DNA of 64,000 nt from a bacterium. GTDB taxonomy: Bacteria > Patescibacteriota > Minisyncoccia > Phycocordibacterales > Phycocordibacteraceae. How positions within the stretch are numbered: the stretch's first letter is position 1; each line of letters begins with the position of its first letter. The DNA lies in assembly GCA_037200965.1 (NCBI GenBank), contig JBBCGK010000001.1, forward strand, positions 576,001-640,000, in the 5' to 3' direction. The notes below the pieces were generated by a model. The model was not told the DNA's origin. It searched no databases and saw only the letters and a list, made by a program, of their open reading frames with translations. The position numbers and the translations under genes are program-made. This document shows, in pieces, positions 12,452 through 64,000 of this stretch.

Positions 12452-12541
12452 GCATCAGTTGCGTTCGCGACGGTTTTTGATAGCATTCGCGGAATCGCCG
12501 TAGGTTTTGGATGCGGCGCAACGAGTAAGAGGGAGAATAAG

Positions 12542-21981: not shown

Positions 21982-22728
21982 ATGCAAAACCGGGAATCGC
22001 TCAGAAAAATGCTCATACGCTCGGGCCTTAACGATCACGAAGCCGTAGTGTATCTTTCGATGCTTGAACTCGGCCCCTCGACCGTGCTCAAAATCTCCCG
22101 ACAGTCGGGGGTAAAACGAACAACCATTTACGCCGTTATAGAGTCCCTGCGCGCCAAAGGACTGGTAGGGATTGAGGAGCCGGGTCTCAAGCGCATATAC
22201 GTAGCGGAGAATCCGACGCGTCTTGAACGCATACTCGATGAACAGAAGCATGCCCTTCAGTCGTTTTTTCCCGAACTTCAGGCACTCTATTCGCTGCGCG
22301 GCAATAACTCAATAATCCGTTATTACGTCGGTACCGAGGCGATGAGGAGCGTCTACGACGAACTTCTCGCGGAACTCAAAAGCGGTGACGACTATTATGT
22401 CTTTGGGGACCCCGAGCGGTGGGATGCGTTCGATAAAGACTATTTCAAGTCTTTCATTGCTCGCAGGCTGCGGATCAATCTCAAGGCGAAGATCGCGCTC
22501 ATACCCTCAGAAGTTGCGAAAAGTTATAAGCTAAATGAGAAGAATTTTCGGGAAGAGGTTCGCTTGCTTCCGAAAGGCACGCGGCTTGATGCAAATATGC
22601 TGATAACGCCTCGGAAAATCGTAATTCACCCGCTCACCTATCCCATTACGACCATTGTTATTGAAACAGACGCCTTGGTTCGTATGCAGCAGGAGCTGTT
22701 TATGGTGACGTGGGAAGGACTCATATAA
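21982..22728 (+). CDS. TrmB-family transcriptional regulator
   Basis: Sequence SGLNDHEAVVYLSMLELGPSTVLKISRQSGVKRTTIYAVIESLRAKGLV. Confidence 0.8.
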   Translation: MQNRESLRKMLIRSGLNDHEAVVYLSMLELGPSTVLKISRQSGVKRTTIYAVIESLRAKGLVGIEEPGLKRIYVAENPTRLERILDEQKHALQSFFPELQALYSLRGNNSIIRYYVGTEAMRSVYDELLAELKSGDDYYVFGDPERWDAFDKDYFKSFIARRLRINLKAKIALIPSEVAKSYKLNEKNFREEVRLLPKGTRLDANMLITPRKIVIHPLTYPITTIVIETDALVRMQQELFMVTWEGLI

Positions 22729-26570: not shown

Positions 26571-27374
26571 GTGATATTCAGCCGCACGGAAGACCTCGAA
26601 GACCGTATCATCGAACTCCTCCTTGAGGGTCGTTTGAGTATCAAATCGATGCACGCCCGGCTGGTCTTTCCTGAGAAATCGCTCTCGCTTCGCGCTATTT
26701 ATAAAGCGACGGACAAACTCATCGCGGCGGGCGTGCTCATTAAAACCGGGAAGCGGCTGATGGTGGACGAAGAATGGGCGCGAAGGGTAGGGGAGCGACT
26801 TCGTCCTGTCCCGGTCGCGGCGCCCTCAGTCGGGGAGAAATTTTCCCATACCTTTACATCGATCGAACACCTCGATGCCTTCTGGAAGACAGTGGTCCTC
26901 CCTATTGAGGAATCGGTTCCGAACCCCGAAGTCTTCTTCTACAACCCGCACGATTTCTGGGCATATATGCCCGAGCGCAAGGAAAGCGAGGAGGCGTATT
27001 ATCGGCATTTCGCTAAGGTGGGGCGCCACGGCTTTTTTATCGTAGGAGGGGAGTCTGAGGCGGACAAGGAATTTAAGCGGGAATACCAAGGCGAATACCT
27101 TCAAATAGATACAAGAAATATCCTATCCCTTCGCCGAAGTGACCATGTGACCGTTATAGGCTCTCTTATCGTCACGGTACGGCTCCCTAAGGTATCAGCG
27201 ACGCGGATCGATAAGCTCTATGAATCGAACAGGCCGATAAAGGACACACTTCCCGAGCTTCTCCCCATCTGTCGGGCGTTGGGGAAGATTCGCTTCACCC
27301 TTGAAAACGACCCCTTGAAGGCAAAGAAGCTCAGAAAGCTTCTTGCGAGGAACTTCTATTTTCCGAAAACGTAG
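26571..27374 (+). CDS. uncharacterised winged-helix regulator-like protein, paralog family X (2 of 3)
   Basis: 267 aa, homologous to 12985..13788 and 62739..63554. Confidence 0.55.
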   Translation: MIFSRTEDLEDRIIELLLEGRLSIKSMHARLVFPEKSLSLRAIYKATDKLIAAGVLIKTGKRLMVDEEWARRVGERLRPVPVAAPSVGEKFSHTFTSIEHLDAFWKTVVLPIEESVPNPEVFFYNPHDFWAYMPERKESEEAYYRHFAKVGRHGFFIVGGESEADKEFKREYQGEYLQIDTRNILSLRRSDHVTVIGSLIVTVRLPKVSATRIDKLYESNRPIKDTLPELLPICRALGKIRFTLENDPLKAKKLRKLLARNFYFPKT

Positions 27375-34660: not shown

Positions 34661-35434
34661 ATGTCAATAATTCTTGACCAAACGGATAGCAAGGAGTTGA
34701 TTGAAGGGCTTGAGACGCTGGGCCTGAACGCTAAGGAGGCACAGGTCTATCTGGCCCTTTTGCCCCGTCGGGACGTCGGTTCCTCGAAGATTGTCCTTGC
34801 GACAGGCCTTCATAAGCAGTTCGTATACAATGCAATCGAAAAACTGGAGCAATTAGGCCTCATAAAGCATGTCATACAGAACGGCCGGAAGAAGTTCAGT
34901 GCCAATCCGCCGAGTCGTCTCCTCTCTATCGTGGAAGAGAAGCGCCTTGCCGCTCAAAACATGGCGAAGCGCCTCCAGGAACGCTTTATCGGCGCGCATG
35001 AGCAGGATTTCGAAGTGTTCCAAGGAGATTCGGCCGTACTTGCCCACCATTACGATATGTTCGAACGCATCGAACAGGACCAGGAAGCGCTCGTGATATC
35101 GGGACCCACCGAGACATTCCTTAAGATTATCGGCCCGGACGAGAAGGATGTATTCGAGGAAACGCGCGTAGCGAAAGGCCTTCGCATCCGCTATCTGGGT
35201 ATGGAATCGATGCGCGAACGGCTCATCGAGACGAAAAAATGGCGCAAGCTCTTCGATTACCGCATCCTGCCGGGCGGACAATCGACCGGCCAGCTCGATA
35301 TCGATATCTGGCCGAACAACGTCACGTACAACCTTTTCGGTGATCCTCTGCTCTCCATCACGATTACGAACAAAGCGATGACCGATGGATACCGGGAGTT
35401 CTTCGAGTCGCTGTGGAAGCTCTCGAAACCATAA
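34661..35434 (+). CDS. TrmB-family transcriptional regulator
   Basis: Sequence LGLNAKEAQVYLALLPRRDVGSSKIVLATGLHKQFVYNAIEKLEQLGLI. A TTGACG-17-TATGCT promoter-like element lies upstream. Confidence 0.75.
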   Translation: MSIILDQTDSKELIEGLETLGLNAKEAQVYLALLPRRDVGSSKIVLATGLHKQFVYNAIEKLEQLGLIKHVIQNGRKKFSANPPSRLLSIVEEKRLAAQNMAKRLQERFIGAHEQDFEVFQGDSAVLAHHYDMFERIEQDQEALVISGPTETFLKIIGPDEKDVFEETRVAKGLRIRYLGMESMRERLIETKKWRKLFDYRILPGGQSTGQLDIDIWPNNVTYNLFGDPLLSITITNKAMTDGYREFFESLWKLSKP

Positions 35435-50565: not shown

Positions 50566-51423
50566 ATGAAGGAGGGAATGCCTGGTACCGGTAAGAACAC
50601 CCAGTCGCAATCGGAGCCGGAAAGGATCGATCGGCGGGTATTTCTTCGCGGCGTTCTTGCTGGCGGCGCTGCGGTGGCCGCAGGCCCGCTTGCTCCTCAG
50701 GAAGCGCAAGCGTCGACAGCGCAAGAGATCCACGAAGGGATGAAAAACGTCGCGGAACTCGAGACGGAAAACGCGAAATACAAGATCGTCTATTCGCTGC
50801 ATAACATCCCCACCAATCCCGGCGTGCTGGAAAGAAGCGACGCCTTGGTGCTTGAAATGACCGACATCAACGATGGGGAGATAGCAAAATCTGAGGTTAC
50901 TACGCATATGAACGGACATTCGGGGGCTAGCGGCAAATTGCAGTATCAGGACGTACTACCCACCGCTCTTGATCGAGGGATGCCGGTATATTTTGCAGAT
51001 GCGATGGGTTTTTCCGAAGAAGCGGTCTTCAGCGAAATGATTAAACGAGAGGTTATCACTCAAGCTGAAGGAACGGTGGGTATAGGAGCGTTGGTTGGTG
51101 GGGCCATCTCCCTTAAGAAGAATCAAAGCAGACCGGATAGAAGGAAGTTGCTGGGCGGCATCGCCGGGTTGACGAGCGGAATTTGGCTCAATATGCCAAG
51201 AGCGGAAAATCTCGTGCAACGAGCGCTGTATGCGGACAACACGCGGGAACCGGAAGAGGGCTCGCTCTACCGGACGATCGATAAGAAATTGACTGATGCG
51301 AATTACCATCTCCATCCCGAAACCCGTACCAAGGTCCGCGATGTTCGTAATACGCTCATAGCCCAAAAAGCGGAGAAACTCGGCAAATGGCTGACGGCAA
51401 AGCTCGACAAGAAACCGACCTAA
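50566..51423 (+). CDS. hypothetical secreted protein with twin-arginine-like signal (DRRVFLRGVLAGGAAVAA)
   Basis: 285-aa ORF. Confidence 0.45.
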   Translation: MKEGMPGTGKNTQSQSEPERIDRRVFLRGVLAGGAAVAAGPLAPQEAQASTAQEIHEGMKNVAELETENAKYKIVYSLHNIPTNPGVLERSDALVLEMTDINDGEIAKSEVTTHMNGHSGASGKLQYQDVLPTALDRGMPVYFADAMGFSEEAVFSEMIKREVITQAEGTVGIGALVGGAISLKKNQSRPDRRKLLGGIAGLTSGIWLNMPRAENLVQRALYADNTREPEEGSLYRTIDKKLTDANYHLHPETRTKVRDVRNTLIAQKAEKLGKWLTAKLDKKPT

Positions 51424-51639
51424 CACTTCTCATCGGGGGTGCGCATACGAGGATCGAGCGGGAGCTTGCGCGAACCGAAGAAGAAAGAGTGGAGGAATTG
51501 AAGAACATCCTCGGTCCATCGTTTAAGGCACAAGGCGCGGTCGTGAAGGTCTGGAAAGAGAACGGCCGCCTACAAAGCAAAGTCTTTACCGACGAAGCGT
51601 TCGAATAGGCCGTTTCTCGTGCCTGCTATACTTGAGTAT

Positions 51640-52383
51640 ATGCTCATCGTCGCGAACTGGAAGGCGTATGTGGCGAGCGAAGAGAAGGCGAGGAAGCTCT
51701 TCACGCTCGCGAAACGGCTCGCGAAACAGCCGAAGATAAAGATCGCGCTCGCCCCGCCCGCTCCGTACCTGGGGCTTTTCGCAAGTTTCAAAAAGTCGAA
51801 AATTTGGCTTGCCGCGCAGGATGTCTCGGAGGCGACTGGCGGGGCCGAAACCGGGGAGGTTCCCGCCCAGTTTCTTTCGGGCCTGGGCGTTTCATACGTG
51901 ATAATCGGGCACTCGGAACGGAGGGCGAGGGGCGAAACGCTCGAAGCGGTCGCCGTAAAGATGCAGCGGGCAAGCGCACAGGGATTAAAGCCGATTCTTT
52001 GCATCGGAGAAAAGGAGCGGGATCATAACGCGGCGTATCTCGCGCTTCTTCGCCAGCAGATCACCAGCGCGCTCGAGCCGCTTACCCAAAAAGAGCGCAT
52101 GAGCGTTACGATCGCGTACGAGCCCGTATGGGCCATAGGAAAATCCGCGGCTGACGCCATCACGCCGCCCGATCTGCATGAAATGGTGCTCTATATACGG
52201 AAAGTCTTGGCCGATCTCGTCCCCGGACGCGCCAACGCGCGCATTCCTATTCTCTACGGCGGTTCGGCGGAAGCGGGGAATATCCGGCTTCTTGCGGCCG
52301 GCAGCGGTATCGACGGATTCCTGGTCGGCCATGCTTCAGCCGATCCGGAGATGTTTTCGGAGTTGGTAAGAGCATTAGCATAG
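51640..52383 (+). CDS. tpiA: triosephosphate isomerase
   Basis: Motifs ANWK, GHSERR and AYEPVWAIG. The start may be GTG at 51619 or ATG at 51640. Confidence 0.9.
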   Translation: MLIVANWKAYVASEEKARKLFTLAKRLAKQPKIKIALAPPAPYLGLFASFKKSKIWLAAQDVSEATGGAETGEVPAQFLSGLGVSYVIIGHSERRARGETLEAVAVKMQRASAQGLKPILCIGEKERDHNAAYLALLRQQITSALEPLTQKERMSVTIAYEPVWAIGKSAADAITPPDLHEMVLYIRKVLADLVPGRANARIPILYGGSAEAGNIRLLAAGSGIDGFLVGHASADPEMFSELVRALA

Positions 52384-52439
52384 TAAGTTCATATAAAAAG
52401 TAACGGTGCACCGGCCAGAAGCCAGCACACCGTTAGAAG

Positions 52440-53702
52440 TCAGGCCGCAACCGAAAGCCTTTCGGCGACGCGCCTAGGCACGTCGCTGTAGAAGCGCTTC
52501 GGCAGGGATATGCCATCTTTCACGCACCCGTTGTTGAACTTGTTGATCTGGTAGTTCACGCTGCCTTGCCAGATATCAACCAGCGATGCATCCCGCACAT
52601 TCGGATGGACGACGAAGTCGGGTGTGTCGTTTCCGGGGCATCTCCAGACGGCACCATCGTAGTGCAGATAGAGTCCGTGCGTGAGCTGATTGCACGGAGC
52701 GATGCCGATGTAGGATGCGGCGCCTTCATGGTACAGCTGTTCAAGGGTCATGACGCCGCGGGTGATGGCCCAAGTGTAGACGTCGACGGCGAGGTCGAGA
52801 TAGTCGTTCTCGAACTTCTCATCCGCAGCCGACCTCACCAGCTTATGGCCCTTGCCGCTCACCATGGTGGGCGGCATCACAACGGGGATATTTCGTTCGG
52901 TTCCCCACTGATAGAGCTCGAACGCGCCATGTACGTTTTCGCCCGTAACCGGAGCGCAGGCGATCTCGAGGCGCTGATGCAGGAGGTCGCCGTTCATCCC
53001 GAGTCCGCAGAGGCGCTCGATGGCGAGGTTCCGCGCCGCGTGATAGTCGAACCTGATATCGCGGAACTCGCGCAAGTTCTGCGGAATGAAGCGATTTTCA
53101 AGCTCGGGATCGAACGACCGTGCGCCGACGAGGAACGTGGTGTTTGGATATGCCGCAAGACGCCGGGTCAGGTCCTCCGATCCGATCCCGTGATAGTGCC
53201 GCGACAGATGGTCATTGCCCATGATTGCCGCCTTGGTGAAGATACCGGCGATGATGTTCCTTTTCGCCAGCTCATCGAGGATGAAGAAGAGCTTTGAATT
53301 CGCCAGCAGTTCTCCGGGACCGAGAAACTTCATCGACTCGAGCCCGAGCAGTTTCGCCTGGTCGACAACCCGCATGACTTCAGGAAGAGTCATGATCGGA
53401 TTGACCAATTCGGCGTTGTTGAAGCAGCCGGGACAGGCGTGCGGACACGGATAGTTCTTCACGAACGTGTCCTTCGCCTCTTTGGAACCGGGCGCATGCG
53501 CGTTGACCTTGGCCGCAAAACCGGCCTCGGGGATATTGAGATCGAGGGTAAGCATTTTCTTTACGCGCTTGCCTTCAATCTCAACGCTTTCCCCGATACG
53601 GCTTTCAGGGAAGCTCCATTTATACACCATCAATGCGTAGCCGTTCGGGATCTGGCCCTTGGGCGGCAGAATGGGCACAACGGCAGGGAATATGTTTTTC
53701 AT
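52440..53702 (-). CDS. radical SAM protein with Cys-rich C-terminal (SPASM/twitch-like) region
   Basis: Motifs CPHACPGCF (CxxxCxxC + aromatic) and GPGELL. C-terminal cysteines (APC, WRC, GCV). Confidence 0.7.
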   Translation of the reverse strand: MKNIFPAVVPILPPKGQIPNGYALMVYKWSFPESRIGESVEIEGKRVKKMLTLDLNIPEAGFAAKVNAHAPGSKEAKDTFVKNYPCPHACPGCFNNAELVNPIMTLPEVMRVVDQAKLLGLESMKFLGPGELLANSKLFFILDELAKRNIIAGIFTKAAIMGNDHLSRHYHGIGSEDLTRRLAAYPNTTFLVGARSFDPELENRFIPQNLREFRDIRFDYHAARNLAIERLCGLGMNGDLLHQRLEIACAPVTGENVHGAFELYQWGTERNIPVVMPPTMVSGKGHKLVRSAADEKFENDYLDLAVDVYTWAITRGVMTLEQLYHEGAASYIGIAPCNQLTHGLYLHYDGAVWRCPGNDTPDFVVHPNVRDASLVDIWQGSVNYQINKFNNGCVKDGISLPKRFYSDVPRRVAERLSVAA

Positions 53703-53874
53703 GACGGTAGCCTTTCGGGTTGGGTTGCCTTTCTTTCAAGAAGCTTCGCACTTCTTCCGCAAGTATATTTCTACAAGTCAAGGATGTCAATAGGTCGTAT
53801 GCTAAAATAGGGCTTACTTAAAGCATGTGCACAGTAGTGTGGAACGCGTTTGACACGAATATACCCTATAGAGT

Positions 53875-54678
53875 ATGATTAAACTCATGAAAAAAAGACA
53901 AGAGGACGCGTCAGAAACGCTTCTGTCTTTAGGGCTTTCAAGAAGGGAAGTAGGAGTGTATATCGCGCTTTTAGAGCTTGGACACGGGACGGTCACCCAG
54001 ATATCAAGAAAGGCGGGTATAAATAGGACGACTGGTTACGATATCCTTGATGCGTTAGCGCACAAGAACCTCGCGCGGCTCTCCGGTAAGGAGCCAAAGG
54101 AAGAATACGTGGCTGAATCTCCGGAAAAGCTCGTTACGCTGCTTGATGAGAAGCTGGCAGAGACACAAAAGCAGCTGATCCTTGCGAAGGAATTTCTCCC
54201 GCAACTCAAAGCGATGCATACGGTTCAGGATCGTCCGCAAGTACGGTTCTATGAGGGTGTCGAAGGACTCAAAGAAGTATATGAAGACACTTTGACTTCC
54301 CCGGAACCGATTCGTGCGTACGCCTGTATCGACGACATGCACAAGGCGCTCCCCAACTACTTTCCCGAGTACTATAAACGTCGCGCGCGCAAAGGCATCT
54401 CGATACGCGGCATAGTCCCCGAGACAAAAACGGCGATGGCGCAGGCTGCGTTTAATGCGGAGGAAAAACGCGATATAGCGTTCGTGCCTGCCGATAAGTA
54501 TTACTTCTCTCCGGAAATAAATATTTACGCTAATAAAGTTATGGTGGCATCGTGGCGCGAGAAGCTCGGCATCATCATAGAAAGCGCCGAGATCGCTGAT
54601 GCCATGAAAAAGATATATGAGCTGGCGTGGGCAGAAGCCAAGCGGCTTGATGCGGCGAACTCACCGGTGTCGACATAG
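53875..54678 (+). CDS. TrmB-family transcriptional regulator
   Basis: Sequence LGLSRREVGVYIALLELGHGTVTQISRKAGINRTTGYDILDALAHKNL. Confidence 0.75.
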   Translation: MIKLMKKRQEDASETLLSLGLSRREVGVYIALLELGHGTVTQISRKAGINRTTGYDILDALAHKNLARLSGKEPKEEYVAESPEKLVTLLDEKLAETQKQLILAKEFLPQLKAMHTVQDRPQVRFYEGVEGLKEVYEDTLTSPEPIRAYACIDDMHKALPNYFPEYYKRRARKGISIRGIVPETKTAMAQAAFNAEEKRDIAFVPADKYYFSPEINIYANKVMVASWREKLGIIIESAEIADAMKKIYELAWAEAKRLDAANSPVST

Positions 54679-54714
54679 GCAACGTCGAAGGAAGGAGCAG
54701 GTTACTATGTATCC

Positions 54715-55854
54715 ATGAAAAGCGTTCGCGATATTCCGGTGCTTGAAAACGTACCGGTATTCGTGCGCTCGTCGCTCAATGTTCCGTTGGTAGATGGAAA
54801 GGTAGCGAACGCGTACCGCATCAAGCACGCGCTTCCCACCATCGAATTCCTCCGGAAAGAGAACGCGCGCATTGTTATCGGAAGCCATATCGGGGAAGCG
54901 GGAACCGAGACGCTCGAGCCCGTATACCTCGCGCTCAAGCAGATGCTCCCCGGCGTCTCGTTCTGCCCGGTCTCTACGGGTCCCCGGGCGCGCGAAGCGG
55001 TGCGGGCGCTTCTGCCGGGCGAAGTTCTCGTGCTTGAGAACCTGCGCAGGAATCGGGGGGAAGTGATGAACGACATGGCGTTTGCCGAAGCGCTTGCCGA
55101 ACTCACGGATGTCTTTGTCGAAGATGCGTTCGATACCTGCCATCGCGAGCACGCATCGATAGTAAGCCTTCCGACGCTCCTGCCTTCGTATGCGGGGCTT
55201 CAGCTCATCGAGGAGATCGCCGAACTCTCGAAGGCGCTCAAACCGAAGGCCCCGTCGCTCGCGGTCATCGGCGGCGCGAAGTTCGGCACCAAGGAGCCCG
55301 TGATCCGCAAGCTTCTCTCCCTCTACACGCACGTGTTTGTGGGCGGCGCGCTTGCGAACGATTTTCTCGCAGCTAAGGGCTATCCCGTGGGAAAGTCGCT
55401 CGTTTCGGGCGGAGATGCCGCCGCTACTAAAGAACTCTTGGTGGATAAGAAACTGGTGCTTCCGCTCGATTCGCTCGTCTGCAAATCCGGCGGCGCGAAA
55501 ACGCCCGGACAGGCACGTATCGCGGGACTTGATGACGTTCAGGAAGACGAAACCATCCTCGATCACGGCCCGAAGACGAATGAAATGCTCGCGAGATTGG
55601 CAGCCGGCGCGAAGACGATTCTCTGGAACGGGCCGCTCGGCCAGTATGAGGCGGGCTTCACGGAAGCGACGGATGCGCTTGCGGTCGCCATCGCCGACTC
55701 AGGCGCGGAGTCATACATCGGGGGAGGAGACACGGAAGCTGCCATCGACTCGCTCGGCCTCAACCGCCGATTCACGTTCATATCGACCGGCGGCGGCGCG
55801 ATGCTTTCGTATCTTGCGAAGGGGACGCTTCCGGGGATTGAGGCGCTGGGCTAG
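54715..55854 (+). CDS. pgk: phosphoglycerate kinase
   Basis: Full-length match to the PGK domain architecture (GSHIGEAG...STGGGAMLSYL). Confidence 0.9.
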   Translation: MKSVRDIPVLENVPVFVRSSLNVPLVDGKVANAYRIKHALPTIEFLRKENARIVIGSHIGEAGTETLEPVYLALKQMLPGVSFCPVSTGPRAREAVRALLPGEVLVLENLRRNRGEVMNDMAFAEALAELTDVFVEDAFDTCHREHASIVSLPTLLPSYAGLQLIEEIAELSKALKPKAPSLAVIGGAKFGTKEPVIRKLLSLYTHVFVGGALANDFLAAKGYPVGKSLVSGGDAAATKELLVDKKLVLPLDSLVCKSGGAKTPGQARIAGLDDVQEDETILDHGPKTNEMLARLAAGAKTILWNGPLGQYEAGFTEATDALAVAIADSGAESYIGGGDTEAAIDSLGLNRRFTFISTGGGAMLSYLAKGTLPGIEALG

Positions 55855-56111
55855 GTTCCGTACAGGTTATGGTGCGTGTCGATGTCCGTGAGGACGATGG
55901 CGTCACCTACCATCTCGTAGATGAGTCGCCAATCGCCGGTCACGTTGATGCTTCGAAAGCCCGTCCATTCTCCCCGCAAGGGATGGTTGTTAAGTAGCGG
56001 GTTTTGAGGATCGGCCATAAACAGCCTAAGGCGCTCGACGAGCGCGCGGCGGATACCAGCCGGTAGGCGCGATACTCGTTTCTCAAACTGTCGTTTGCGG
56101 AGAACCTGCAT
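55851..56111 (-). CDS. type II toxin, RelE/YafQ family
   Basis: Sequence LLNNHPLRGEWTGFRSINVTGDWRLIYE. Confidence 0.65.
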   Translation of the reverse strand: MQVLRKRQFEKRVSRLPAGIRRALVERLRLFMADPQNPLLNNHPLRGEWTGFRSINVTGDWRLIYEMVGDAIVLTDIDTHHNLYGT

Positions 56112-56113
56112 GA

Positions 56114-56383
56114 CTATGCGCGTATGGCGCGCGCGAATTCTTCAAGGGACGAAGCGATGAAATGCTCCGGATGTTCGCGGTATTCGCGGCTAAGCGCTTC
56201 CCATTCGCGCAGCTTCTCCGGACGCGGTACAAGCGATACCTCGAACCGCCCGTCGGAAACGAACTGCGCGAGCTGCGCGTTCATAACGGTAGTAAGGGGA
56301 ATGCCGAGCTTCTGCGCGGTGCGCTTCGCGGCATCCCGGAGCTTTTTGTCAGTCTTGATGGTGATAGTTGTTTTCGTATTCAT
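56114..56383 (-). CDS. type II antitoxin, DinJ/RelB family
   Basis: Sequence ITIKTDKKLRDAAKRTAQKLGIPLTTVMNAQLAQFV. It lies directly upstream of the toxin gene. Confidence 0.6.
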   Translation of the reverse strand: MNTKTTITIKTDKKLRDAAKRTAQKLGIPLTTVMNAQLAQFVSDGRFEVSLVPRPEKLREWEALSREYREHPEHFIASSLEEFARAIRA

Positions 56384-56530
56384 ACCTATATACTACTTTG
56401 GGTATGAGCGTGCTGTCAATCCAATGCAGTTCAAATCTCGTCCGCGAGCCCGCGCACTTCACAAAACCGCCTATCTGGGCGGCTTTGTGTTTAAGAGAAC
56501 GGAATGTTTAAACCAGGTATACTTTTAGTT

Positions 56531-56890
56531 ATGGAAGACTGCATTTTCTGCAAAATAGTGAACCGAGAATCACCTGCCTCGGTAGTGTTTGAAGACGATA
56601 CCTCTATGGTAATTGAACCCATTGATCCTATTTCAAAAGGACATGTACTCGTGCTGCCCAAGAAACATTTTGTGAATATGCTCGATACCGACGACGAGAC
56701 GTTATCTCATCTTGCTGTCGTTTCCAAGAATGTCGGGCACACAGTGCTTGGAAAAAACAACGCTCACTCAATGAACCTTCTCCATGCCGCTGGGATGGAG
56801 GCGCAGCAATCCGTATTCCATCTCCACTTCCATATCGTGCCACGGTATGAGAATGATGGGCTGGATCTCTGGTTTAGGAACAGTCTCTAG
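56531..56890 (+). CDS. HIT-family (histidine triad) protein
   Basis: Sequence MEDCIFCKI...HLHFHIVPR. Confidence 0.8.
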   Translation: MEDCIFCKIVNRESPASVVFEDDTSMVIEPIDPISKGHVLVLPKKHFVNMLDTDDETLSHLAVVSKNVGHTVLGKNNAHSMNLLHAAGMEAQQSVFHLHFHIVPRYENDGLDLWFRNSL

Positions 56891-56991
56891 GATTAGAGAG
56901 GATACTGGAATCGAACCATTCTCTCAGAAAGCACAGTAAGCTGAGCTAACACAATTTCGGTATAAGAATATAGCCCCTACACTCTCTTATC

Positions 56992-57504
56992 TTGGTTCCA
57001 ACAGCGTCTACGAGCTCGCGCACTCTGGACGATAGTGGAACTGCTATAGTTCCTGATATGGAAATTCCACAGATTAAGATGATTTACGCTTATCCGTTAG
57101 ACGAGGACAGGCGACGGTTTTTCTCTCAACAAAACTTAGGCCGGTATCCCTCCGTTGAAGAGGTCAGGGATACGACTTCTCACTGGAGAAATGTATGGAA
57201 TGAAACCAATAGAGACAACAGGATCGTCTTAACGTTACAAGAGTTAACGAAGAGAGTGCCAACGCGGAGCTTAGAGTGTTTCATTATCGGAGGAGGCATT
57301 AAAGCCATGTCTACCCCCTTCATTATTTCAGTCAGAAAAAGAAATGGGGAAGAGCGCTCAGATCAAGACTTCATCGAGACGCTAATTCACGAAGCAGCGC
57401 ATATTTTCGTATCAGACGTTCCGGCCTACTTCGACTCTCTTCGCGAGAAATATTCCGGGAGCCGCTATCTGCCCGGAATCATATACTCATTTACGCGCTA
57501 TTAG
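56992..57504 (+). CDS. hypothetical protein with HExxH motif (LIHEAAHIF), putative small metallopeptidase
   Basis: 170-aa ORF. The start is uncertain. Confidence 0.4.
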   Translation: MVPTASTSSRTLDDSGTAIVPDMEIPQIKMIYAYPLDEDRRRFFSQQNLGRYPSVEEVRDTTSHWRNVWNETNRDNRIVLTLQELTKRVPTRSLECFIIGGGIKAMSTPFIISVRKRNGEERSDQDFIETLIHEAAHIFVSDVPAYFDSLREKYSGSRYLPGIIYSFTRY

Positions 57505-57793
57505 AGAAACTATACTTAGACCTATTTAATTCTCGCCCAAGTGACTTTGCTAACAGTGACCTGCCGGACAGTTATATCCGAGCGATAGAAATCGTTAAGC
57601 AAGAGGGTTACGAAAAGCTGATTGAAGAATACCAGTCCTTCGTGTAGTAGTTCCGAGGTTGTCCGTAAGGTCGCGACCCTCCCATCTGTTTCACAAATAT
57701 GCCCGAATCTTCCCCGCATTCCCCTCGAAATCCATTTTGTCCCCTTCCGCTTGGCCTGGGAATATCCAGATATTCAATCGGTGGCAACGCGGT

Positions 57794-57848
57794 AGTAGCG
57801 TATCTTGCATGGGAAACGCTTCCGGGGACTGAGGCGCTGGAATCCTAG
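57794..57848 (+). repeat. degenerate duplicate of the pgk 3' terminus (would encode ..AYLAWETLPGTEALES*), direct repeat of 55805-55856
   Basis: CGTATCTTGC...ACGCTTCCGGGGA[T/C]TGAGGCGCTGG is shared with the pgk end (25 bp with 1 mismatch inside a ~45-bp ~85% match). Confidence 0.6.
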
Positions 57849-58615
57849 AGAGCCTTCCACATAAAGGCATGCATATTTTTAAACAGATTAGCGATATCCT
57901 TGTTTTCGATAACAACCGCAGATAAGTCCCGGAGACTTATAAGCGCGACCTTTTCGTTGAAAACAAGAACGTCGACATTGGACGTAAACCATTCGGGGAG
58001 CCGTTTGTCTGATTTATTTTCATATCCGTTCTTCTCGCGCAGAGCTCGCAGTTTTTTGTAGGTTTTAGCGCTTGCGATAAACAAATCCTTCGCCTTAAAC
58101 GCGTGATCGCTATTTGTCTTGTCGAAATCGCCGTATTCTGCTTCGGTGAAGTTTTCGAAGAAAATATCGGCGGGGAAGATGGAATACGTATCGCCGAGCG
58201 TTTTAAACAGTTCCTCGTAAATATTCTTGATCGCACGCTTTCCTTCGAAGAAGCCGACCTTGGGCTTGTTCGTCGCGCGTTCATATATCTTGCTCATGAC
58301 GGCGGCAGTCGAGTCGAATGCTAGAAGCTCCTTCCTAAGATTTGCGGCGACGGTCTTCGGATCGACTGCCGCGTACAGCGTGCGCTTGCCGATAGGTATC
58401 CGAGTAATGAAACCCTTTTTGAGCAGAAGATCCAGATATTCGTAGCAGGTAGCGCGCCGCACGTCCGCTTGGCGGACTATATCCGCGACTCCCATGCGGC
58501 TTTTCCCGAGAAGCGACACGTAAATCACCGCAGCCTTATCCGGCAAACCGATTCGTTCCAACTCCTTTATGAACGGGATATGTTCCATAAGTTCATATAA
58601 GCTGACTTGGAACAA
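57845..58615 (-). CDS. TrmB-family transcriptional regulator
   Basis: Sequence IGLPDKAAVIYVSLLGKSRMGVADIVRQADVRRATCYEYLDLLLKKGFI. Confidence 0.7.
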   Translation of the reverse strand: MFQVSLYELMEHIPFIKELERIGLPDKAAVIYVSLLGKSRMGVADIVRQADVRRATCYEYLDLLLKKGFITRIPIGKRTLYAAVDPKTVAANLRKELLAFDSTAAVMSKIYERATNKPKVGFFEGKRAIKNIYEELFKTLGDTYSIFPADIFFENFTEAEYGDFDKTNSDHAFKAKDLFIASAKTYKKLRALREKNGYENKSDKRLPEWFTSNVDVLVFNEKVALISLRDLSAVVIENKDIANLFKNMHAFMWKAL

Positions 58616-58720
58616 ATGTCAACGAAAGCGACATATTTTACCAGTACCCTCTAAACCACCCTTCACTTTATAAGTCTATTAATAAATATAAGCGTTATTC
58701 CAGACACAAGTACCCATTTA

Positions 58721-59245
58721 TTGAATACTGGGCGGGCTGGTATGGCGCTAAAATCAAAGACAACTCTGCAAACCAAACGCGGCATTTTCGAAGTCGGATA
58801 TTACGTTGTAGACGGGAATCCTTATGTTTCTTTCCGCTACGGGGATGTTTCCCAGGGCAGACCAATAGTGCGATTACAGTCGGCTTGCCTTTTCGGGGAG
58901 GCTTTCGGTTCGCTTGAGTGCGAGTGTGGCGCGCAACTTGCCAAGGCTCTGGACGCCATTGTTAGCCGCGGGGCGGGTCTTGTGCTCTATGCCTATGCGG
59001 AAGGTCGTGGCGCAGGGCTTGAGAAAAAGATAGAAGCTATGGAGATTCAAAGGACGACCGGATGCAATACAGTCGAAGCTTTTGACTCGCTTGGTCTTGA
59101 GAAGTCCGACTACCGGGATTATCAGGCTGAGGTGAACATCCTCACCGAGTTAGGCACAAGCCTCCATATCTGCTTGTTTTCGAAAAATCCAGCTCGATAT
59201 CAAGCGCTCAAAGACGCAGGCTTCGATGTAGATCCATATGAGTAG
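58721..59245 (+). CDS. GTP cyclohydrolase II (RibA)-family protein
   Basis: Motifs RLQSACLFGEAFGSLECECGAQLAKAL (zinc Cys triad) and EGRGAGLEKKIEA...NTVEAFDSLGLEKSDYRDY. The start may be the internal MALKSK. Confidence 0.75.
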   Translation: MNTGRAGMALKSKTTLQTKRGIFEVGYYVVDGNPYVSFRYGDVSQGRPIVRLQSACLFGEAFGSLECECGAQLAKALDAIVSRGAGLVLYAYAEGRGAGLEKKIEAMEIQRTTGCNTVEAFDSLGLEKSDYRDYQAEVNILTELGTSLHICLFSKNPARYQALKDAGFDVDPYE

Positions 59246-60140
59246 CTCGTCTGAGCTTATGTATCGTTGGCTTCGCGTATCTCCTACCGGAGACGGATAT
59301 ATCGAGCCCGATTATTACGATCAGCTTCTCAGAAAGTATATCTTTGATGGTAAAGAGGATACCGAGTACTTCCGAGAACATCTTGCAAAAGCACCTTCTC
59401 ATTCAGCATTTCTTGAGCTTGGCCCCGGGACCGGACGAGCGACAAATATACTATTCGCATCGGTTCCGGACATACATTCGCTTACGCTCGTTGATTTAAG
59501 CAGCCGTATGCTTAGTAGCTGCAAACAAGTTTTCACCCGCAAAGAATGCATTTCTTATGTCGTTTCCGATTCCATAGATTTCCTGTTGTCAGTGCAGTCG
59601 TCGTACGACTATATCTATAGCCTGTGGAGTCTTTCTCACTCCATACACAAGAATCTTGAAGACTTGGGAAAAGAAGACGGAAAAGCAAAAGTACGAGAGG
59701 CGCTCTTAAAAATGGTACGGGAGAATCTCAACCGGAACGGCTCTTTATTCCTGATACATTTCGATTCTTCCTCTCCCGAGCAGGAAATATCTATTCGGCA
59801 AAGGCGGCGCGATTCCCGTGACCGGAAATTGTTTGCAGATGTCTCCAAACAAAGTCCCTCTAAGGAAATACTCGACGAGTGCCTTGAAGAATTAAGGCGC
59901 TCGGGTGAGATCTGTTTTGAATGTGAGAGGCATGTAGGTACAGCGCTCGAATTCAGTTCGCTCGACGAAGCGCTCGAGTATTATCTTAATTTCCATATGG
60001 CTTCGTATTTCAATACCTCAAGTTCGATCGACGACATCTTGAAGGAGCTTTCTCAGGATTTACTGGAACACCAAGGGAGTGATGGAAAGATACGGATCGT
60101 TCCCGGTTGCTTCATCTACAAAGCAAGTAAGCCTGGTTAA
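59238..60140 (+). CDS. class I SAM-dependent methyltransferase
   Basis: Motif LELGPGTGRAT. Overlaps the upstream gene by 8 nt (ATGAGTAG). Confidence 0.6.
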   Translation: MSSSSELMYRWLRVSPTGDGYIEPDYYDQLLRKYIFDGKEDTEYFREHLAKAPSHSAFLELGPGTGRATNILFASVPDIHSLTLVDLSSRMLSSCKQVFTRKECISYVVSDSIDFLLSVQSSYDYIYSLWSLSHSIHKNLEDLGKEDGKAKVREALLKMVRENLNRNGSLFLIHFDSSSPEQEISIRQRRRDSRDRKLFADVSKQSPSKEILDECLEELRRSGEICFECERHVGTALEFSSLDEALEYYLNFHMASYFNTSSSIDDILKELSQDLLEHQGSDGKIRIVPGCFIYKASKPG

Positions 60141-60176
60141 ATGTTGGTTGCCAGAAAGCTCCCTATATAAAAATCA

Positions 60177-60998
60177 CTAAGATACTTGGCTATTCATCAG
60201 ATCGCGCAAAAGCTCGTTCGCATCTATAAGCTGCGAATGCTCCTGCATAAATTCAAAGGCGGAAAGAATCATTTTTTGTATCTCCGAGTTCTTGACTTCG
60301 ACAATCAATCCTTCGCTTAAGGAGAAGAGATATAAGGAATCCTTAAATATCCAGCACTGGCCGCCATGCCTGAAGTACTTTGGATCAATAACATTGACTC
60401 TCGCGGTGCGTCCTTCGAAATCTTTCACCCATTGTATTCCTAGAGAACGCGCTTGTTCCTCAAGCCACCCGATTGGCAAGACAGCTTCGGTAATCGTACG
60501 GCCCTTCTTTATATCGCGGTTTATTCGGTTTGTTTCGGAAACGGTGAACAGGGTATTCCAACTCTTGGTCGCGCGGTCACCTTGGAAGCCCCAGAAGAAC
60601 CGTTGGTTCTTGTTCGCTTCAAAGAGCTCAAGCATGACCTTCCTAATTGCTTCTTTTCCCCGATAGATACATACCGTTGAGTCAGCGCGACCGTGAACCT
60701 GTTGGTTTCCTTCGGGTATTTGCAGCAAGAAACGCTTGAAATCGTATAGTGCCTGATCAATAGTATCTCCGCTATGCAATTGCCACCGCTTGCGTCCTTT
60801 GGCGATGCGCGAAACGGCCAGCCCTCGTTTATGCAGATTCGCCAAAATCGCATAAATGGCAGAGCGGGAGATTCCCGTCTGGCGAGTCAGCTTTAAGGGC
60901 GTATCCGCACCGTCGCGAAGCGCCAAGAGAATCTTCCTTTCCTTGATTGAGAGGCCGAGTATTCGCAGATCATCGTGAAGTGCCATACGGCAAAACAT
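60177..60998 (-). CDS. TrmB-like transcriptional regulator
   Basis: Sequence LGLSIKERKILLALRDGADTPLKLTRQTGISRSAIYAILANLHKRGL. Confidence 0.65.
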   Translation of the reverse strand: MFCRMALHDDLRILGLSIKERKILLALRDGADTPLKLTRQTGISRSAIYAILANLHKRGLAVSRIAKGRKRWQLHSGDTIDQALYDFKRFLLQIPEGNQQVHGRADSTVCIYRGKEAIRKVMLELFEANKNQRFFWGFQGDRATKSWNTLFTVSETNRINRDIKKGRTITEAVLPIGWLEEQARSLGIQWVKDFEGRTARVNVIDPKYFRHGGQCWIFKDSLYLFSLSEGLIVEVKNSEIQKMILSAFEFMQEHSQLIDANELLRDLMNSQVS

Positions 60999-61169
60999 AG
61001 CAAAAGGTATATAACCTGTCCACTTTCTTAGACAGATATATAAAGCATAAAAACCCTTATATACAGCTTATTTCCAGTATTACTCAACTTAGAGAATACC
61101 TTACTATACTGTCAATGTCTTTAGGATCATTCTTATAGAGGGAACTAGAACTTTATATGGGAGACCGCT

Positions 61170-62318
61170 ATGGCTTGCGAAACGAACGAAGTGCCGCAGG
61201 AAGTGACCGCGATCGATCGTTGGATTGACCACGTATTGCACGGAGAAAAGGATACTGCGATTCCAACGTTACTTGGTCGGGAAGTTCCACCTCTTTTGTC
61301 GTGGATAGTGCGGGGCGGATGCGCGATACAGTGCCGCCACTGCATCTTTCCTCACGAAGGCCCGAAAACCTTCGGCGTGCAAACGGGCGAGGAAGCGCTT
61401 CTCGGCATTCTCCGCCAGTTGTCCGGTTCGCGCCACCTCATTCACGAAGGAAGGCAGCTACTTCCGTGGCAGGTACCGATCTTGGCGGCTGCAGGCCGCG
61501 CAGGACACGGAGTATCGCTTATCAATAACGGACAATATGCAGCGCCGAATATGCTGGCGCTATGCGAGCGAGAGGGGCTCGCAATCGACGCGCTTGACGT
61601 GTCGGTCGACGGTACGAAAGATATCCACAATGGACAGCGCGCGAGCAATAATGCCTGGGACATCGCAATGAAAGGGATTGTGCATGCCAAGCACATACTC
61701 AAGACCGATGGCAAACTTACTTCTCTCTTCACGCTCACCACGCTCAATCACGCGCACTTAGCCGAAACGGGAGAGATGCTCACGCAGGTGGTCGATGAAT
61801 GGCACGTGACGACGATGTCGTTACGGCCGGGGATCGAGCACCTGCGGGCAGGCGATCGCGAACTCGCCTTAGCGCTTGAACAATTGCTCGGCGGCAACTT
61901 CGCGAAACCAGTGTTCCTGCGTACCTATTCTCTCGACGATTTTGTCGCTCTGCTTGGAATTCTCGGAAAAGAAACGGCAAATAGGGTTCTCAGGAACGCG
62001 CTGGTGACTTATAACGCCATCGTACTCGATATCGGAATACCCCTGTACTTCTATCCTAAGTCCCTGCAGGTGAATGAAACGTTAGTGATCGACGCGGATG
62101 GGTGGTGGCGTCTGCCGTTTTGCATCCATCACTCGCTTGCGGAACTGCGGGCGGGAGAGGATGAGATGGGCAAGGATATTTCGCATTTCAATGTCGTCCC
62201 GGTACTGCCGTGCGTGGATGTCCCAACTCTCCATGCCAAGGCCGCATCGAGATGGTGGGTCAGTATAGGCCGGGATTGTTTATCGCTTGAGCGCCAGGCG
62301 CTCGAAGCGTTTCTCTAA
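61170..62318 (+). CDS. radical-SAM-like enzyme (CxxxCxxC: GGCAIQCRHCIF) with C-terminal Cys residues
   Basis: N-terminal Cys triad in typical rSAM spacing. Three further Cys near the C-terminus. No other family assignment is possible by eye. Confidence 0.5.
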   Translation: MACETNEVPQEVTAIDRWIDHVLHGEKDTAIPTLLGREVPPLLSWIVRGGCAIQCRHCIFPHEGPKTFGVQTGEEALLGILRQLSGSRHLIHEGRQLLPWQVPILAAAGRAGHGVSLINNGQYAAPNMLALCEREGLAIDALDVSVDGTKDIHNGQRASNNAWDIAMKGIVHAKHILKTDGKLTSLFTLTTLNHAHLAETGEMLTQVVDEWHVTTMSLRPGIEHLRAGDRELALALEQLLGGNFAKPVFLRTYSLDDFVALLGILGKETANRVLRNALVTYNAIVLDIGIPLYFYPKSLQVNETLVIDADGWWRLPFCIHHSLAELRAGEDEMGKDISHFNVVPVLPCVDVPTLHAKAASRWWVSIGRDCLSLERQALEAFL

Positions 62319-62341
62319 CAACCGGAAAGGAGGTGAAAACT

Positions 62342-62461
62342 ATGTCCGGAGCCAATACCGGTTCCGCTGGCGTGGATGCGAAAGCACGTCCGCCAGTGCA
62401 ATCGTCAGGGGCGAATACCGGTTCGACGGGCGTAACGACGCCGCGTTTGCCGCGTAAGTAG
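62342..62461 (+). CDS. 39-aa repeat peptide MSGANTGSAGVDAKARPPVQSSGANTGSTGVTTPRLPRK, candidate RiPP precursor/substrate
   Basis: Strong SD AAGGAGGTGA 8 nt upstream. Begins 24 nt after the rSAM-like stop. Two copies of SGANTGS[AT]GV. A nested hairpin (62472-62515) lies downstream. Confidence 0.4.
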   Translation: MSGANTGSAGVDAKARPPVQSSGANTGSTGVTTPRLPRK

Positions 62462-62738
62462 CCTCGGTGACTACAGAGAGCCCGTTCACGCTTTTGATTC
62501 GCGTGGGCGGGCTCTTCTCTTTTATACACTAAATGTGATTCTCGATGTTTCTTTAGAATCGATCGGTCGCCGTTCGCGTAGCCGAGACGGGTCTAACAAT
62601 CGAACGATAGCGGCGCAATGCTCAAGTCTCTTGCGGCTGAATGTTTTCAGCGATTGAAGCATTGAGAGACTAAACAGATTACTCTATTCATAAAGACGCA
62701 TATACCACCTCGTAAAGTCACCCAATACCGCTTTGGTA

Positions 62739-63554
62739 TCAACGACGAATATGAAAATCCTTGGATATACGGCGTTTCCACGCGGCGGCTTTCCCAGGGT
62801 CTTTAGCAATTTTTACCTTTGATGTAACTTCGTGATCTAACTTCTTCAACTTATCCTTGGCGCGCTCAAGGTCGGTTTCCGTTTTAAAGAGAAGTTCGAC
62901 TGCCTTTCGAGCTTTGGGATTAAAACGCACTTCAATCACCCATTCGTGGATTACGGCAATAAACACTTCTTGACGAACTTTCGGCGAGTACGATACCTCA
63001 ACGTTAGAGAATGCGAGCTCCCGGGTTGCGAGCTTGTCGAGCGCCGAAGAGGAGCCGATGAGAAGATAGGCTCTTCTTCCTTTTGCTCCAAGGAGCATAT
63101 CGTGGCTTTTGTCGCTATCGCCACGCAGTACACTCGACCAATTATGCGGATTAAAGAGGTAAAGGTGCTGGCGGTGAGGAACACCCTTTTCAATTACTGA
63201 AAACAGATGGGACCATATCCGATCCATAGCAGTAAGACCATGAATGGTAAGCGTGATCTCTTCTCCGCGTTCAAGCTGACTGAAGTCGCCGAGGATGGAA
63301 CTGTTTTTATATTCGACAAGCTGGCGAAGCTGCTTTAACCAATGTTCGCTTACCGATACGGCAGAACGGTAGACGATAACCTTCTCTTGCGCTCTCAGCT
63401 TTCTAAGCGCCCTATAAAAACCCTGCTTCGTGCAGGCGTGCTTCCTCCTCAGGCCTTTAAGGAGCTCAGTAGTCGTAACCGCTCCTTTTTGAAGTACAAA
63501 AGTAAGGACTGAATCTTCAAGGCGGCTGCCTAACAGTTGCATAGCAGTAAACAA
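62739..63554 (-). CDS. uncharacterised winged-helix regulator-like protein, paralog family X (3 of 3)
   Basis: 271 aa, homologous to 12985..13788 and 26571..27374 (FNPHNWSS, IGSSSALDK). Confidence 0.55.
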   Translation of the reverse strand: MFTAMQLLGSRLEDSVLTFVLQKGAVTTTELLKGLRRKHACTKQGFYRALRKLRAQEKVIVYRSAVSVSEHWLKQLRQLVEYKNSSILGDFSQLERGEEITLTIHGLTAMDRIWSHLFSVIEKGVPHRQHLYLFNPHNWSSVLRGDSDKSHDMLLGAKGRRAYLLIGSSSALDKLATRELAFSNVEVSYSPKVRQEVFIAVIHEWVIEVRFNPKARKAVELLFKTETDLERAKDKLKKLDHEVTSKVKIAKDPGKAAAWKRRISKDFHIRR

Positions 63555-63658
63555 CCCGTTTACTATACACCCATTTTGGCCCAGATGCTTGAGCTTGGCA
63601 AAAGGCGGGTTCTAAATGTACGCGGACGGAAGAACCGTTCTCTTTGGAGGAACGAACT

Positions 63659-64000
63659 ATGTGTTTTTGTGGCTATGATCCGAAAATGGGCGAGAGCGTC
63701 CGGGTGTTTGCTGAGGGGTTGAATCGATCCCTCAGCGCCAAGGCCGAGCGTCTCGGTCTTACCATGTCCGCGCAGATGCAATCGGAAGCGCTCGAGCTGA
63801 ACGCGCTGATCGAACTCCTGAACCAGAAGCTCGCGAACTCGGAAGACTCTCGACGACATGAGCTGGAAGGACTGCTCGGCATCGTGTACCTCATTCGTGC
63901 TCTTATGCAGCCGGAACGAAACGAGATATCCGTTCGCAGCGACTTCGAACTCTCAGTTCGCACGCGGGCAGTTCGACTGGACGAGAGCATGATTCGCTTC
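63659..64000 (+). CDS. hypothetical protein, 5' partial view (continues beyond window)
   Basis: ATG preceded by GGAGGA. The open frame runs to the window end. Confidence 0.3.
   Translation, partial: MCFCGYDPKMGESVRVFAEGLNRSLSAKAERLGLTMSAQMQSEALELNALIELLNQKLANSEDSRRHELEGLLGIVYLIRALMQPERNEISVRSDFELSVRTRAVRLDESMIRF

Follow-up and report, generated by a model that had tools for sequence, protein, structure and literature searches.

A probable mosaic insertion at the pgk/HIT junction of a Patescibacteria genome carries a candidate radical-SAM peptide cassette

Introduction

Genomes of the Candidate Phyla Radiation (CPR, or Patescibacteria) are tiny and thought to be poor in specialised metabolism. 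Yet a 64,000-nt stretch of one such genome (GCA_037200965.1, contig JBBCGK010000001.1, positions 576,001 to 640,000) contains a segment that looks like a biosynthetic locus. We call the whole stretch the window and count positions from its first letter. Between 57,845 and 63,554 the window encodes a GTP cyclohydrolase II-like (RibA-like) protein, an S-adenosylmethionine (SAM) methyltransferase (MTase), a radical-SAM (rSAM) enzyme, a short repeat peptide and three putative winged-helix regulators. An initial annotation, made from the letters only, described this segment as a low-GC island, with a gene content that would fit a horizontally acquired locus for a small molecule or a modified peptide. 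Is the segment really acquired, and do its genes belong to one pathway?

Our answer is twofold. The segment is probably part of a strain-specific 8.3-kb mosaic insertion in the junction between pgk and a HIT-family gene. Within this mosaic there is one conserved cassette, which consists of a regulator, the rSAM enzyme and the peptide.

Among named organisms, those closest in pgk and in the rSAM protein are Parcubacteria, Paceibacterota, Kaiserbacteria, Nomurabacteria and Moranbacteria. Hence the organism is a CPR bacterium.

A probable insertion between pgk and HIT

The region continues beyond the window in locus L001, which comes from the metagenome-assembled genome GCA_037975565.1. L001 is identical to the window over 51,170-64,000 and adds 8.3 kb past the window end. 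The features of the region are as follows (aa, amino acids; ORF, open reading frame; wHTH, winged helix-turn-helix).

54,715-55,854, + strand: pgk, 379 aa, backbone gene on the left of the insertion (PF00162, 330 bits)
55,851-56,111, - strand: RelE/YafQ-type toxin (PF15738, 40.9 bits; TIGR02385, 39.1 bits)
56,114-56,383, - strand: RelB-like antitoxin (TIGR02384, 29.7 bits, under its cut-off)
56,531-56,890, + strand: HIT-family paralogue HIT1 (PF01230, 83 bits)
56,992-57,504, + strand: 170-aa ORF with no assigned function
57,688-57,773, - strand: HIT 3' relic, last 26 codons (90% over 86 nt to the HIT2 3' end)
57,774-57,848, + strand: pgk 3' relic, last 24 codons (76% over 67 nt to 55,783-55,849)
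57,845-58,615, - strand: TrmB1, TrmB-like wHTH protein, 256 aa (PF01978, 47.9 bits against a cut-off of 25.6)
58,721-59,245, + strand: RibA-like protein, stand-alone GTP cyclohydrolase II fold (PF00925, 114.8 bits)
59,238-60,140, + strand: class I SAM methyltransferase (PF13649, 36 bits)
60,177-60,998, - strand: TrmB2, TrmB-like wHTH protein, 273 aa (PF01978, 25.9 bits, borderline at the cut-off of 25.6)
61,170-62,318, + strand: rSAM enzyme, 382 aa (Cx3Cx2C at C51/C55/C58; Pfam score 23.1, under cut-off)
62,342-62,461, + strand: 39-aa repeat-peptide gene, MSGANTGSAGVDAKARPPVQSSGANTGSTGVTTPRLPRK (two core repeats; GGAGGTG before the start)
62,476-62,525, + strand: terminator-like hairpin, 16-bp stem and U-run (-30.3 kcal/mol, z = -4.9; 0 of 200 shuffles fold as well)
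62,739-63,554, - strand: X271, "family-X" protein, 271 aa (predicted winged helix and PLD-like domain)
63,659-64,000 in the window, running to 64,081, + strand: 140-aa ORF, last cargo gene before HIT2 (no family match)
64,203-64,559 in window-equivalent positions (L001 13,034-13,390), outside the window: HIT2, backbone gene

We compared synteny by protein searches and contig look-ups. A pgk scan of genome contigs gave only a 2.4-kb Saccharibacteria contig and an archaeon. The pgk orthologues are 77-80% identical. The backbone order TIM-pgk...HIT is kept in three relatives (L047, L049 and L050). The order HIT-RecJ-RNaseH-ComEC-SOD is kept in the same three and in L001, with flanking proteins that are 59-86% identical. 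What varies is the space between pgk and HIT. In L047 and L048 (pgk 77% identical) the two genes are convergent and overlap by 4 nt. In L049 (pgk 78%) just a RelE/YafQ-RelB pair separates them, and in L050 (pgk 65%) one 138-aa gene.

Because pgk and its convergent HIT gene are adjacent or nearly so in these relatives, we take the DNA from 55,855 to ~64,202 to be inserted. It comprises 8.3 kb with 11 genes and the peptide, and its right end lies 200 nt beyond the window. Only the toxin-antitoxin pair of the insert is also found in one relative (L049); HIT1 and the 170-aa ORF are not at the pgk/HIT site in L047, L049 or L050. The segment 57,845-63,554 forms the right-hand two thirds of the insertion, and it is missing at the pgk/HIT site of the two closest relatives (77-78%) as well as of the third (65%).

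The base composition is atypical too. A windowed calculation bears out the lower GC content that the initial annotation had noticed: 0.489 in 57,845-63,554 compared to 0.551 in the whole window. Among the 5.7-kb windows starting before 50 kb the lowest GC is 0.515. Sliding windows of that size with a GC of at most 0.489 make up 3.4%, and every one of them overlaps the segment. Third codon positions have a mean GC of 0.54 in the segment genes, compared to 0.67 in 55 genes of which pgk is the last (Mann-Whitney p = 3e-4).

Codon usage, measured as the correlation of relative synonymous codon usage (RSCU) with the rest of the window (median 0.80, 10th percentile 0.53), varies from gene to gene. 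For six of the eight block genes the correlation lies between -0.10 and 0.44, which is atypical for the host: 170-aa ORF -0.10, HIT1 0.07, RibA-like 0.25, MTase 0.25, TrmB2 0.41 and X271 0.44. TrmB1 (0.69) and the rSAM gene (0.72) are near-native, and the GC content of the rSAM gene is not low (0.557). Thus the expected foreign codon usage was found for the RibA-like, MTase, TrmB2 and X271 genes, but not for the rSAM and TrmB1 genes. HIT1 and the 170-aa ORF are the most atypical DNA of the insert, with a GC content of ~0.45. Low-GC DNA begins at ~56,400, that is 1.4 kb to the left of 57,845, where the island had been said to start at a displaced pgk 3' remnant. The remnant exists; the start was misplaced, since the insert begins at 55,855.

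A phage or defence origin of the block was rejected. Scans with PHROGs and PADLOC gave generic domain matches only (in PADLOC, the MTase to mad2 with 1.7e-12, HIT to ThsC and the rSAM protein to pVip with E 0.004), and scans of viral contigs with the rSAM and MTase alignments found no relatives.

A record of recombination

The insert is divided into two cargo blocks by a junction of two gene relics (57,688-57,848). The relics of HIT and pgk abut head to head and are fused at their truncated 5' ends, so that the layout reads pgk, cargo 1, HIT relic, pgk relic, cargo 2, HIT. The pgk relic encodes ...AYLAWETLPGTEALES, compared to ...SYLAKGTLPGIEALG at the true pgk end; it is the displaced remnant mentioned above, and its match to 55,783-55,849 confirms it. 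The HIT relic beside it, which had been missed, encodes ...IWIFPGQAEGDKMDFEGNAGKIRAYL, compared to ...VWIFPGQAEGDKMDFEGNAERIRARL in HIT2 (matching DNA at L001 13,031-13,116).

The head-to-head arrangement shows that two alleles of a pgk-cargo-HIT slot were joined. A single illegitimate crossover, 26 codons from the HIT end and 24 codons from the pgk end, would be enough. Both relics are closer to the pgk and HIT genes of this genome than to the copies of relatives, and conserved GGG/AML residues have decayed in the pgk relic. Hence the partner was probably a close lineage and the event not very recent. The DNA probably came from a relative by homology-facilitated illegitimate recombination, or was rearranged by unequal exchange.

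In several ways the insert is like genomic islands and "hot-spot" cargo that arise through homology-facilitated illegitimate recombination. Its composition is atypical, it is missing in relatives, the cargo at the same junction varies between genomes, and gene-end relics are duplicated. Unlike such islands, it is devoid of an integrase, a transposase and a tRNA target, and perfect att repeats are missing as well; in place of attachment sites, the repeats that we found are the gene-end fragments, 76% and 90% identical. The locus thus offers a worked example of cargo gain without mobile-element genes, with the pgk/HIT junction as a variable slot and the relics as a record of recombination.

Two further observations concern the junction. 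In every allele the pgk stop overlaps the stop of its convergent neighbour by 4 nt, be it the toxin, HIT or, at the relic, TrmB1 (window 55,851-55,854 and 57,845-57,848; L047 11,137-11,140; L049 2,095-2,098). Where the sequence was read (window pgk/toxin and relic/TrmB1), the overlap is the palindrome CTAG. It could be a result of compaction or a hint to the point of cargo exchange. HIT1 is 32% identical to HIT2 and lies in the opposite orientation, the first 23 nt of the two are 91% identical, and the codon usage of HIT1 is among the most foreign in the window.

A row of cassettes

Do the inserted genes work together? The gene order had been read correctly: a TrmB-like regulator (-), the RibA-like and MTase genes (+), a TrmB-like regulator (-), the rSAM gene and peptide (+) and the family-X gene (-). 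These genes fall into three separate divergent units. TrmB1 is divergent from the RibA-like gene, TrmB2 from the rSAM gene, and X271 from the 140-aa ORF. The whole mosaic would then consist of five cassettes: RelE/RelB; HIT1 and the 170-aa ORF; TrmB1 with RibA-like(Y105M)-MTase; TrmB2 with rSAM-peptide; and X271 with the 140-aa ORF.

We gathered homologous rSAM loci in two ways: through exact-protein look-ups, and through a scan of metagenomes with the family alignment, which gave 32 loci. All-versus-all clustering of their flanking ORFs gave two recurrent families only, the rSAM family itself (20 loci) and a TrmB-like family (17 loci). The recurrent TrmB-like gene lies ~200 nt upstream of the rSAM gene on the opposite strand (17 of ~20 loci). 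A tblastn search with the RibA-like, MTase, X271, HIT and pgk proteins against ~30 other rSAM loci gave no matches. Homologues of the MTase were found in three loci of differing context, with neither RibA nor rSAM.

Since the RibA-like, MTase and rSAM genes fail to occur together in other loci, the cassettes are independent. Judged from gene neighbourhoods, the block is a row of "regulator and enzyme operon" cassettes and not one pathway. Of the proposed horizontally acquired biosynthetic locus, the accessory and acquired nature stands, given the empty junction of relatives and the relics, whereas the single locus does not. The RibA-like and MTase genes cannot be assigned to the pathway of the rSAM enzyme: they are missing from all ~20 other rSAM loci, and GC content and codon usage vary by gene. 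The idea of a modified peptide survives for the regulator-rSAM-peptide unit only (60,177-62,461), which is kept elsewhere in unrelated positions.

This unit is, as far as its genomic placement tells, portable. In L006 the rSAM module lies 1.5 kb from RNase Y, the window orthologue of which is at 41.6-43.1 kb. The regulator appears to be exchangeable as well. TrmB2 shows 51-53% identity to regulators that accompany a distant rSAM subfamily, in which the peptide lies upstream (L035, L037), and is only remotely like the regulators of its own rSAM subfamily. Its GC content and codon usage are also unlike those of the rSAM gene. This mismatch in kinship and composition points to recombination at the divergent promoter.

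The three regulators are not equally certain. TrmB1 and, as a borderline case, TrmB2 pass PF01978. X271 has no match in Pfam or NCBIfam, and its place among the winged-helix proteins derives from a predicted model of moderate confidence (predicted local distance difference test, pLDDT, 66), in which a winged helix and a PLD-like domain suggest a TrmB-like architecture. Kinship of family X with TrmB by sequence was rejected: hhalign against the TrmB-like protein encoded at 53,875 gave a probability of 0.1, and the predicted fold is the sole link. The TrmB family combines a wHTH domain with a PLD-like middle domain (archaeal TrmB and TrmBL2). Compared to these, the window proteins are short, lack the C-terminal sugar-binding domain and score far under the TrmB equivalog cut-offs. 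An Rfam scan of the intergenic regions for riboswitches and other RNAs gave nothing below E = 0.5. A sigma-70 promoter scan found fewer sites than in shuffled sequence and was uninformative.

The family is unusually dense in this genome. The window has at least nine wHTH proteins (250-270 aa, TrmB-like or family X) in its 64 kb, often divergent from a neighbour. Six of their genes lie outside the island (12,985-13,788; 15,129-15,875; 21,982-22,728; 26,571-27,374; 34,661-35,434; 53,875-54,678).

The radical-SAM enzyme and its peptide

The rSAM enzyme has a minimal architecture. C51, C55 and C58 of the Cx3Cx2C motif are invariant in 23 aligned sequences. The same alignment contains no other invariant or nearly invariant Cys, and there is no match to PF13186 (SPASM). 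Only ~40 residues, forming two helices, precede the rSAM core, hence there is no RiPP recognition element (RRE; RiPP, ribosomally synthesised and post-translationally modified peptide). No Pfam or NCBIfam model reaches its cut-off for the enzyme, and none matches the peptide at all. The nearest neighbours of the predicted fold are SkfB, anSME, SuiB, ChlB, CteB and PqqE; among the structural matches, four of the best five and six of the best nine modify peptides or proteins.

The repeat peptide ORF, which had already been proposed, is real. It begins with the ATG at 62,342, seven bases past GGAGGTG, and not with the GTG at 62,333. Such peptides lie next to the rSAM gene in ~20 of 21 distinct Paceibacteria-type loci, although the rSAM enzymes of these loci are only 25-67% identical to the window protein. 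The sole loci at which we found no peptide ORF are L029 and L030. The peptide ORFs are on the same strand, 12-420 nt downstream of the rSAM gene or, in the distant subfamily, between regulator and enzyme. There are 1-4 such genes per locus, each 11-66 residues long. Each ORF contains 1-4 copies of a core near [GA]-[AV]-N-[TV]-G-S-[AT]-G, followed by a tail rich in R, K and P (P-R-x-P). The motif starts at residue 2-3, which leaves no N-terminal leader; a possible follower is the basic P-R-x-P tail.

Nearly all peptide ORFs have a strong Shine-Dalgarno sequence (GGAGGTG 5-9 nt ahead of the ATG). Over 27 copies of the core, every synonymous codon is used for amino acids that stay the same. The search pattern had itself fixed G5, S6 and G8. 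That these positions are invariant is thus partly circular, unlike the synonymous variation. The core motif occurs almost nowhere else in ~300 kb of six-frame-translated loci. Judged by these starts and codons, the repeat peptide does get translated, and throughout the family its gene stays closely linked to that of the enzyme.

The peptides take diverse forms. L026 has two mini-ORFs at 7,132-7,257, one encoding 11 residues (MGGANTGSTGK) and the other 12 (MDSGASTGSAGK), and both are preceded by a Shine-Dalgarno sequence of their own; the public gene call P0053 runs from the L026 rSAM gene into the former. Peptide genes of the distant rSAM subfamily, encoding for example MSGANTGSVRTARKPRAPKR and MKKCDAAANAGSAGRNGRGQLPPK, stand upstream of the enzyme gene as 1-4 tandem copies, and some of these peptides contain Cys (L028 2,375-2,680; L034 5,334-5,790; L035 1,343; L037 1,818 and 1,967; L038 225). 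A 200-aa family in four rSAM loci was considered as a partner enzyme and rejected, as it is a PaaX/Cas2-like regulator.

Known systems help to place the pair. The enzyme shares the Cx3Cx2C motif and the overall fold with the SPASM/twitch maturases SkfB, SuiB, CteB, PqqE and anSME. It differs from them in that it has no auxiliary-cluster Cys and no RRE and reaches no curated cut-off, and its peptides differ in being leaderless and as short as 11 residues. Three-residue cyclophane "triceptide" precursors are multi-core precursors modified by rSAM enzymes. The peptides described here, with 1-4 short cores each and several genes per locus, resemble such multi-core or repeat precursors, but their core (A-N-T-G-S-A-G) has no aromatic residue and no Cys, and each repeat has its own basic P-R-x-P tail. 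Without aromatic residues or Cys in the core, cyclophane or thioether chemistry does not apply. Full-text literature searches returned nothing specific on the peptide motif or on rSAM RiPPs in CPR bacteria.

We propose that the enzyme would generate a 5'-deoxyadenosyl radical and take a hydrogen from the leaderless peptide, at a site within its invariant N-x-G-S/T core. As for the outcome, our best guess is that the peptide becomes cross-linked intramolecularly or epimerised. The product of the operon, which would stand under the control of its divergent regulator, would be a small modified basic peptide. Among rSAM peptide-maturation systems, the regulator-rSAM-peptide cassette appears to be a variant that is undescribed and confined to CPR bacteria. 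A more specific proposal, which we regard as evenly poised between right and wrong, is that the TrmB-like/rSAM/A-N-T-G-S-A-G unit is an undescribed RiPP-like system specific to CPR bacteria (Paceibacteria). Its rSAM enzyme, devoid of auxiliary clusters and RRE, would itself recognise and modify an 8-residue core in peptides that have no leader and can be only 11 residues long, the small basic product might serve as a signal, cofactor or effector in a host-dependent lifestyle, and the cassette would move between sites and swap regulators.

The RibA-like protein and the methyltransferase

The second enzyme cassette seems to concern GTP ring opening. The RibA-like protein matches PF00925 well (114.8 bits compared to a cut-off of 23.3), but stays below the cut-offs of the more specific models NF001591 (119 vs. 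148) and TIGR00505 (100 vs. 206). In a MAFFT alignment of 152 sequences it keeps the Zn ligands Cys54, Cys65 and Cys67 as well as Arg128 (E. coli 2bz0 numbering). At the position of the catalytic Tyr105 it has Met. Among the 150 best representatives this position is Y in 76, M in 40, I in 19 and L in 9. The closest stand-alone RibA-like homologues almost all have M, L or I.

The S. coelicolor protein SCO6655 reportedly halts at the formylated product because of the same Tyr-to-Met change. The two share the PF00925 fold, the Zn Cys triad, Arg128 and Met at Tyr105. The window protein differs from RibA and SCO6655 in that it is stand-alone (167-174 aa), has no riboflavin genes nearby and is coupled to an uncharacterised MTase. 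Since the Tyr needed for deformylation is Met, the protein would open GTP to a formylated pyrimidine, a formamidopyrimidine (FAPy)-type product. The translationally coupled MTase may then methylate this product or one derived from it; the pair would be unlinked to the rSAM module. Such a pair points to a use of GTP ring opening other than for riboflavin, and flavin synthesis is not obvious in the organism.

The overlap of the two genes (8 nt) depends on the MTase start. It holds for the ATG at 59,238, which an alignment of ten homologues favours, but not for the start at 59,259 chosen by the gene caller. The MTase family is small (22 homologues found). RibA-MTase as a conserved two-gene pathway was dropped, as the three MTase-homologue loci have other neighbours; the pair may still be functional in this strain. 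A toxoflavin-like reading of GTP cyclohydrolase II and MTase was rejected because genes of the ToxC/D/E type are missing.

A Vut_1 putative vitamin/queuosine-precursor uptake transporter is encoded at 21,173-21,865, divergent from a TrmB-like gene. It bears on the question whether flavin- or pterin-type cofactors are imported or synthesised.

Alternative explanations

Three other explanations have to be weighed. If the whole 57.8-63.5 kb block were one acquired biosynthetic gene cluster, the GTP cyclohydrolase II-like protein, MTase, rSAM enzyme and peptide would share one product. The genes are contiguous, all lie in inserted lower-GC DNA, and each enzyme type is known in natural-product pathways. 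We nevertheless consider a single cluster very improbable: RibA-like and MTase genes are missing within 4-10 kb at every one of the ~20 other rSAM loci, MTase homologues occur without RibA and rSAM, and the block is broken up by three divergent units, a strong terminator-like hairpin after the peptide and GC content and codon usage that vary by unit. Alternatively, the block could be ancestral and lost in relatives, in which case the low GC would mirror an AT-rich composition that regulator and accessory genes generally have in this genome. A lowish GC content of 0.50-0.55 is indeed found in the other TrmB-like and family-X paralogues of the window, the rSAM and TrmB1 genes are near-native in codon usage, and the relics are nearer to the genome's own genes than to those of relatives. 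However, loss would require three independent precise deletions that restore the 4-nt overlap or near-abutment. The relic junction is the kind of trace that an added copy leaves and a loss does not, the RSCU correlations of HIT1, the 170-aa ORF, RibA and MTase reach from -0.10 to 0.25 only, and the rSAM module occupies another backbone position in L006. Ancestry is thus improbable, if less so than a single cluster.

The third explanation concerns the cassette. The repeat ORF might not be the rSAM substrate but a regulatory leader or an independent small basic protein, with the enzyme acting on a small molecule or nucleotide like viperin or MoaA. This is unlikely in our view, although not as improbable as the two explanations above. 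The pairing of peptide and enzyme holds over 25-67% enzyme identity, a flipped gene order, 1-4 genes and 1-4 repeats; the 8-residue core is under protein-level selection, which is atypical of attenuation leaders; and most of the top structural matches (the four of five and six of nine given above) act on peptides or proteins. Several points also weigh against our own account of a mosaic insertion with a peptide-modifying cassette. The relatives compared are 65-80% identical in pgk, and no genome of the same species without the block was found. Scans with Pfam, NCBIfam and PHROGs detected no recombinase, integrase or transposase domain in the 11 cargo genes, and no tRNA lies in or beside the block (the window tRNAs are only at 25.9-28.7 kb), so the route of acquisition is a proposal. 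The best rSAM homologue is 67% identical, and the housekeeping genes of that genome are 59-72% identical. This housekeeping-like divergence, together with the near-native GC content and codon usage of the rSAM gene, means that the module may be old in the lineage and merely relocated. Furthermore, the enzyme is without the auxiliary clusters and RRE of the maturases it resembles and without the conserved extra Cys that known rSAM epimerases use, and ORF clustering found no protease or exporter conserved near the rSAM loci. The FAPy-type product is predicted from the reported behaviour of SCO6655.

If the proposal for the cassette is true, the rSAM/mini-peptide pair, which recurs in dozens of CPR genomes, would offer an entry point that is cheap and tractable, as two genes suffice and the substrate has just 11-39 residues. 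New radical peptide chemistry could come to light in this way, and possibly the molecules used by these episymbionts.

Other features of the region

A second divergent pair lies at the TIM-pgk junction: a TrmB-like gene (53,875-54,678, +) and a different rSAM gene (52,440-53,702, -). The encoded rSAM protein has Cx3Cx2C at C86/90/93 and a weak SPASM match; no adjoining peptide ORF was seen. Elsewhere the same junction is empty (L049) or holds a diversity-generating retroelement (bAvd and reverse transcriptase, L047) or an aldo-keto reductase (L050).

Two 100% identical copies of a 962-nt insertion sequence lie at window 11,491-12,452 and at L001 19,808-20,769, ~7 kb past the window end. The element encodes a 300-aa rve_3/HTH_Tnp_1 transposase, and its copies bracket ~59 kb that include the whole region studied here.

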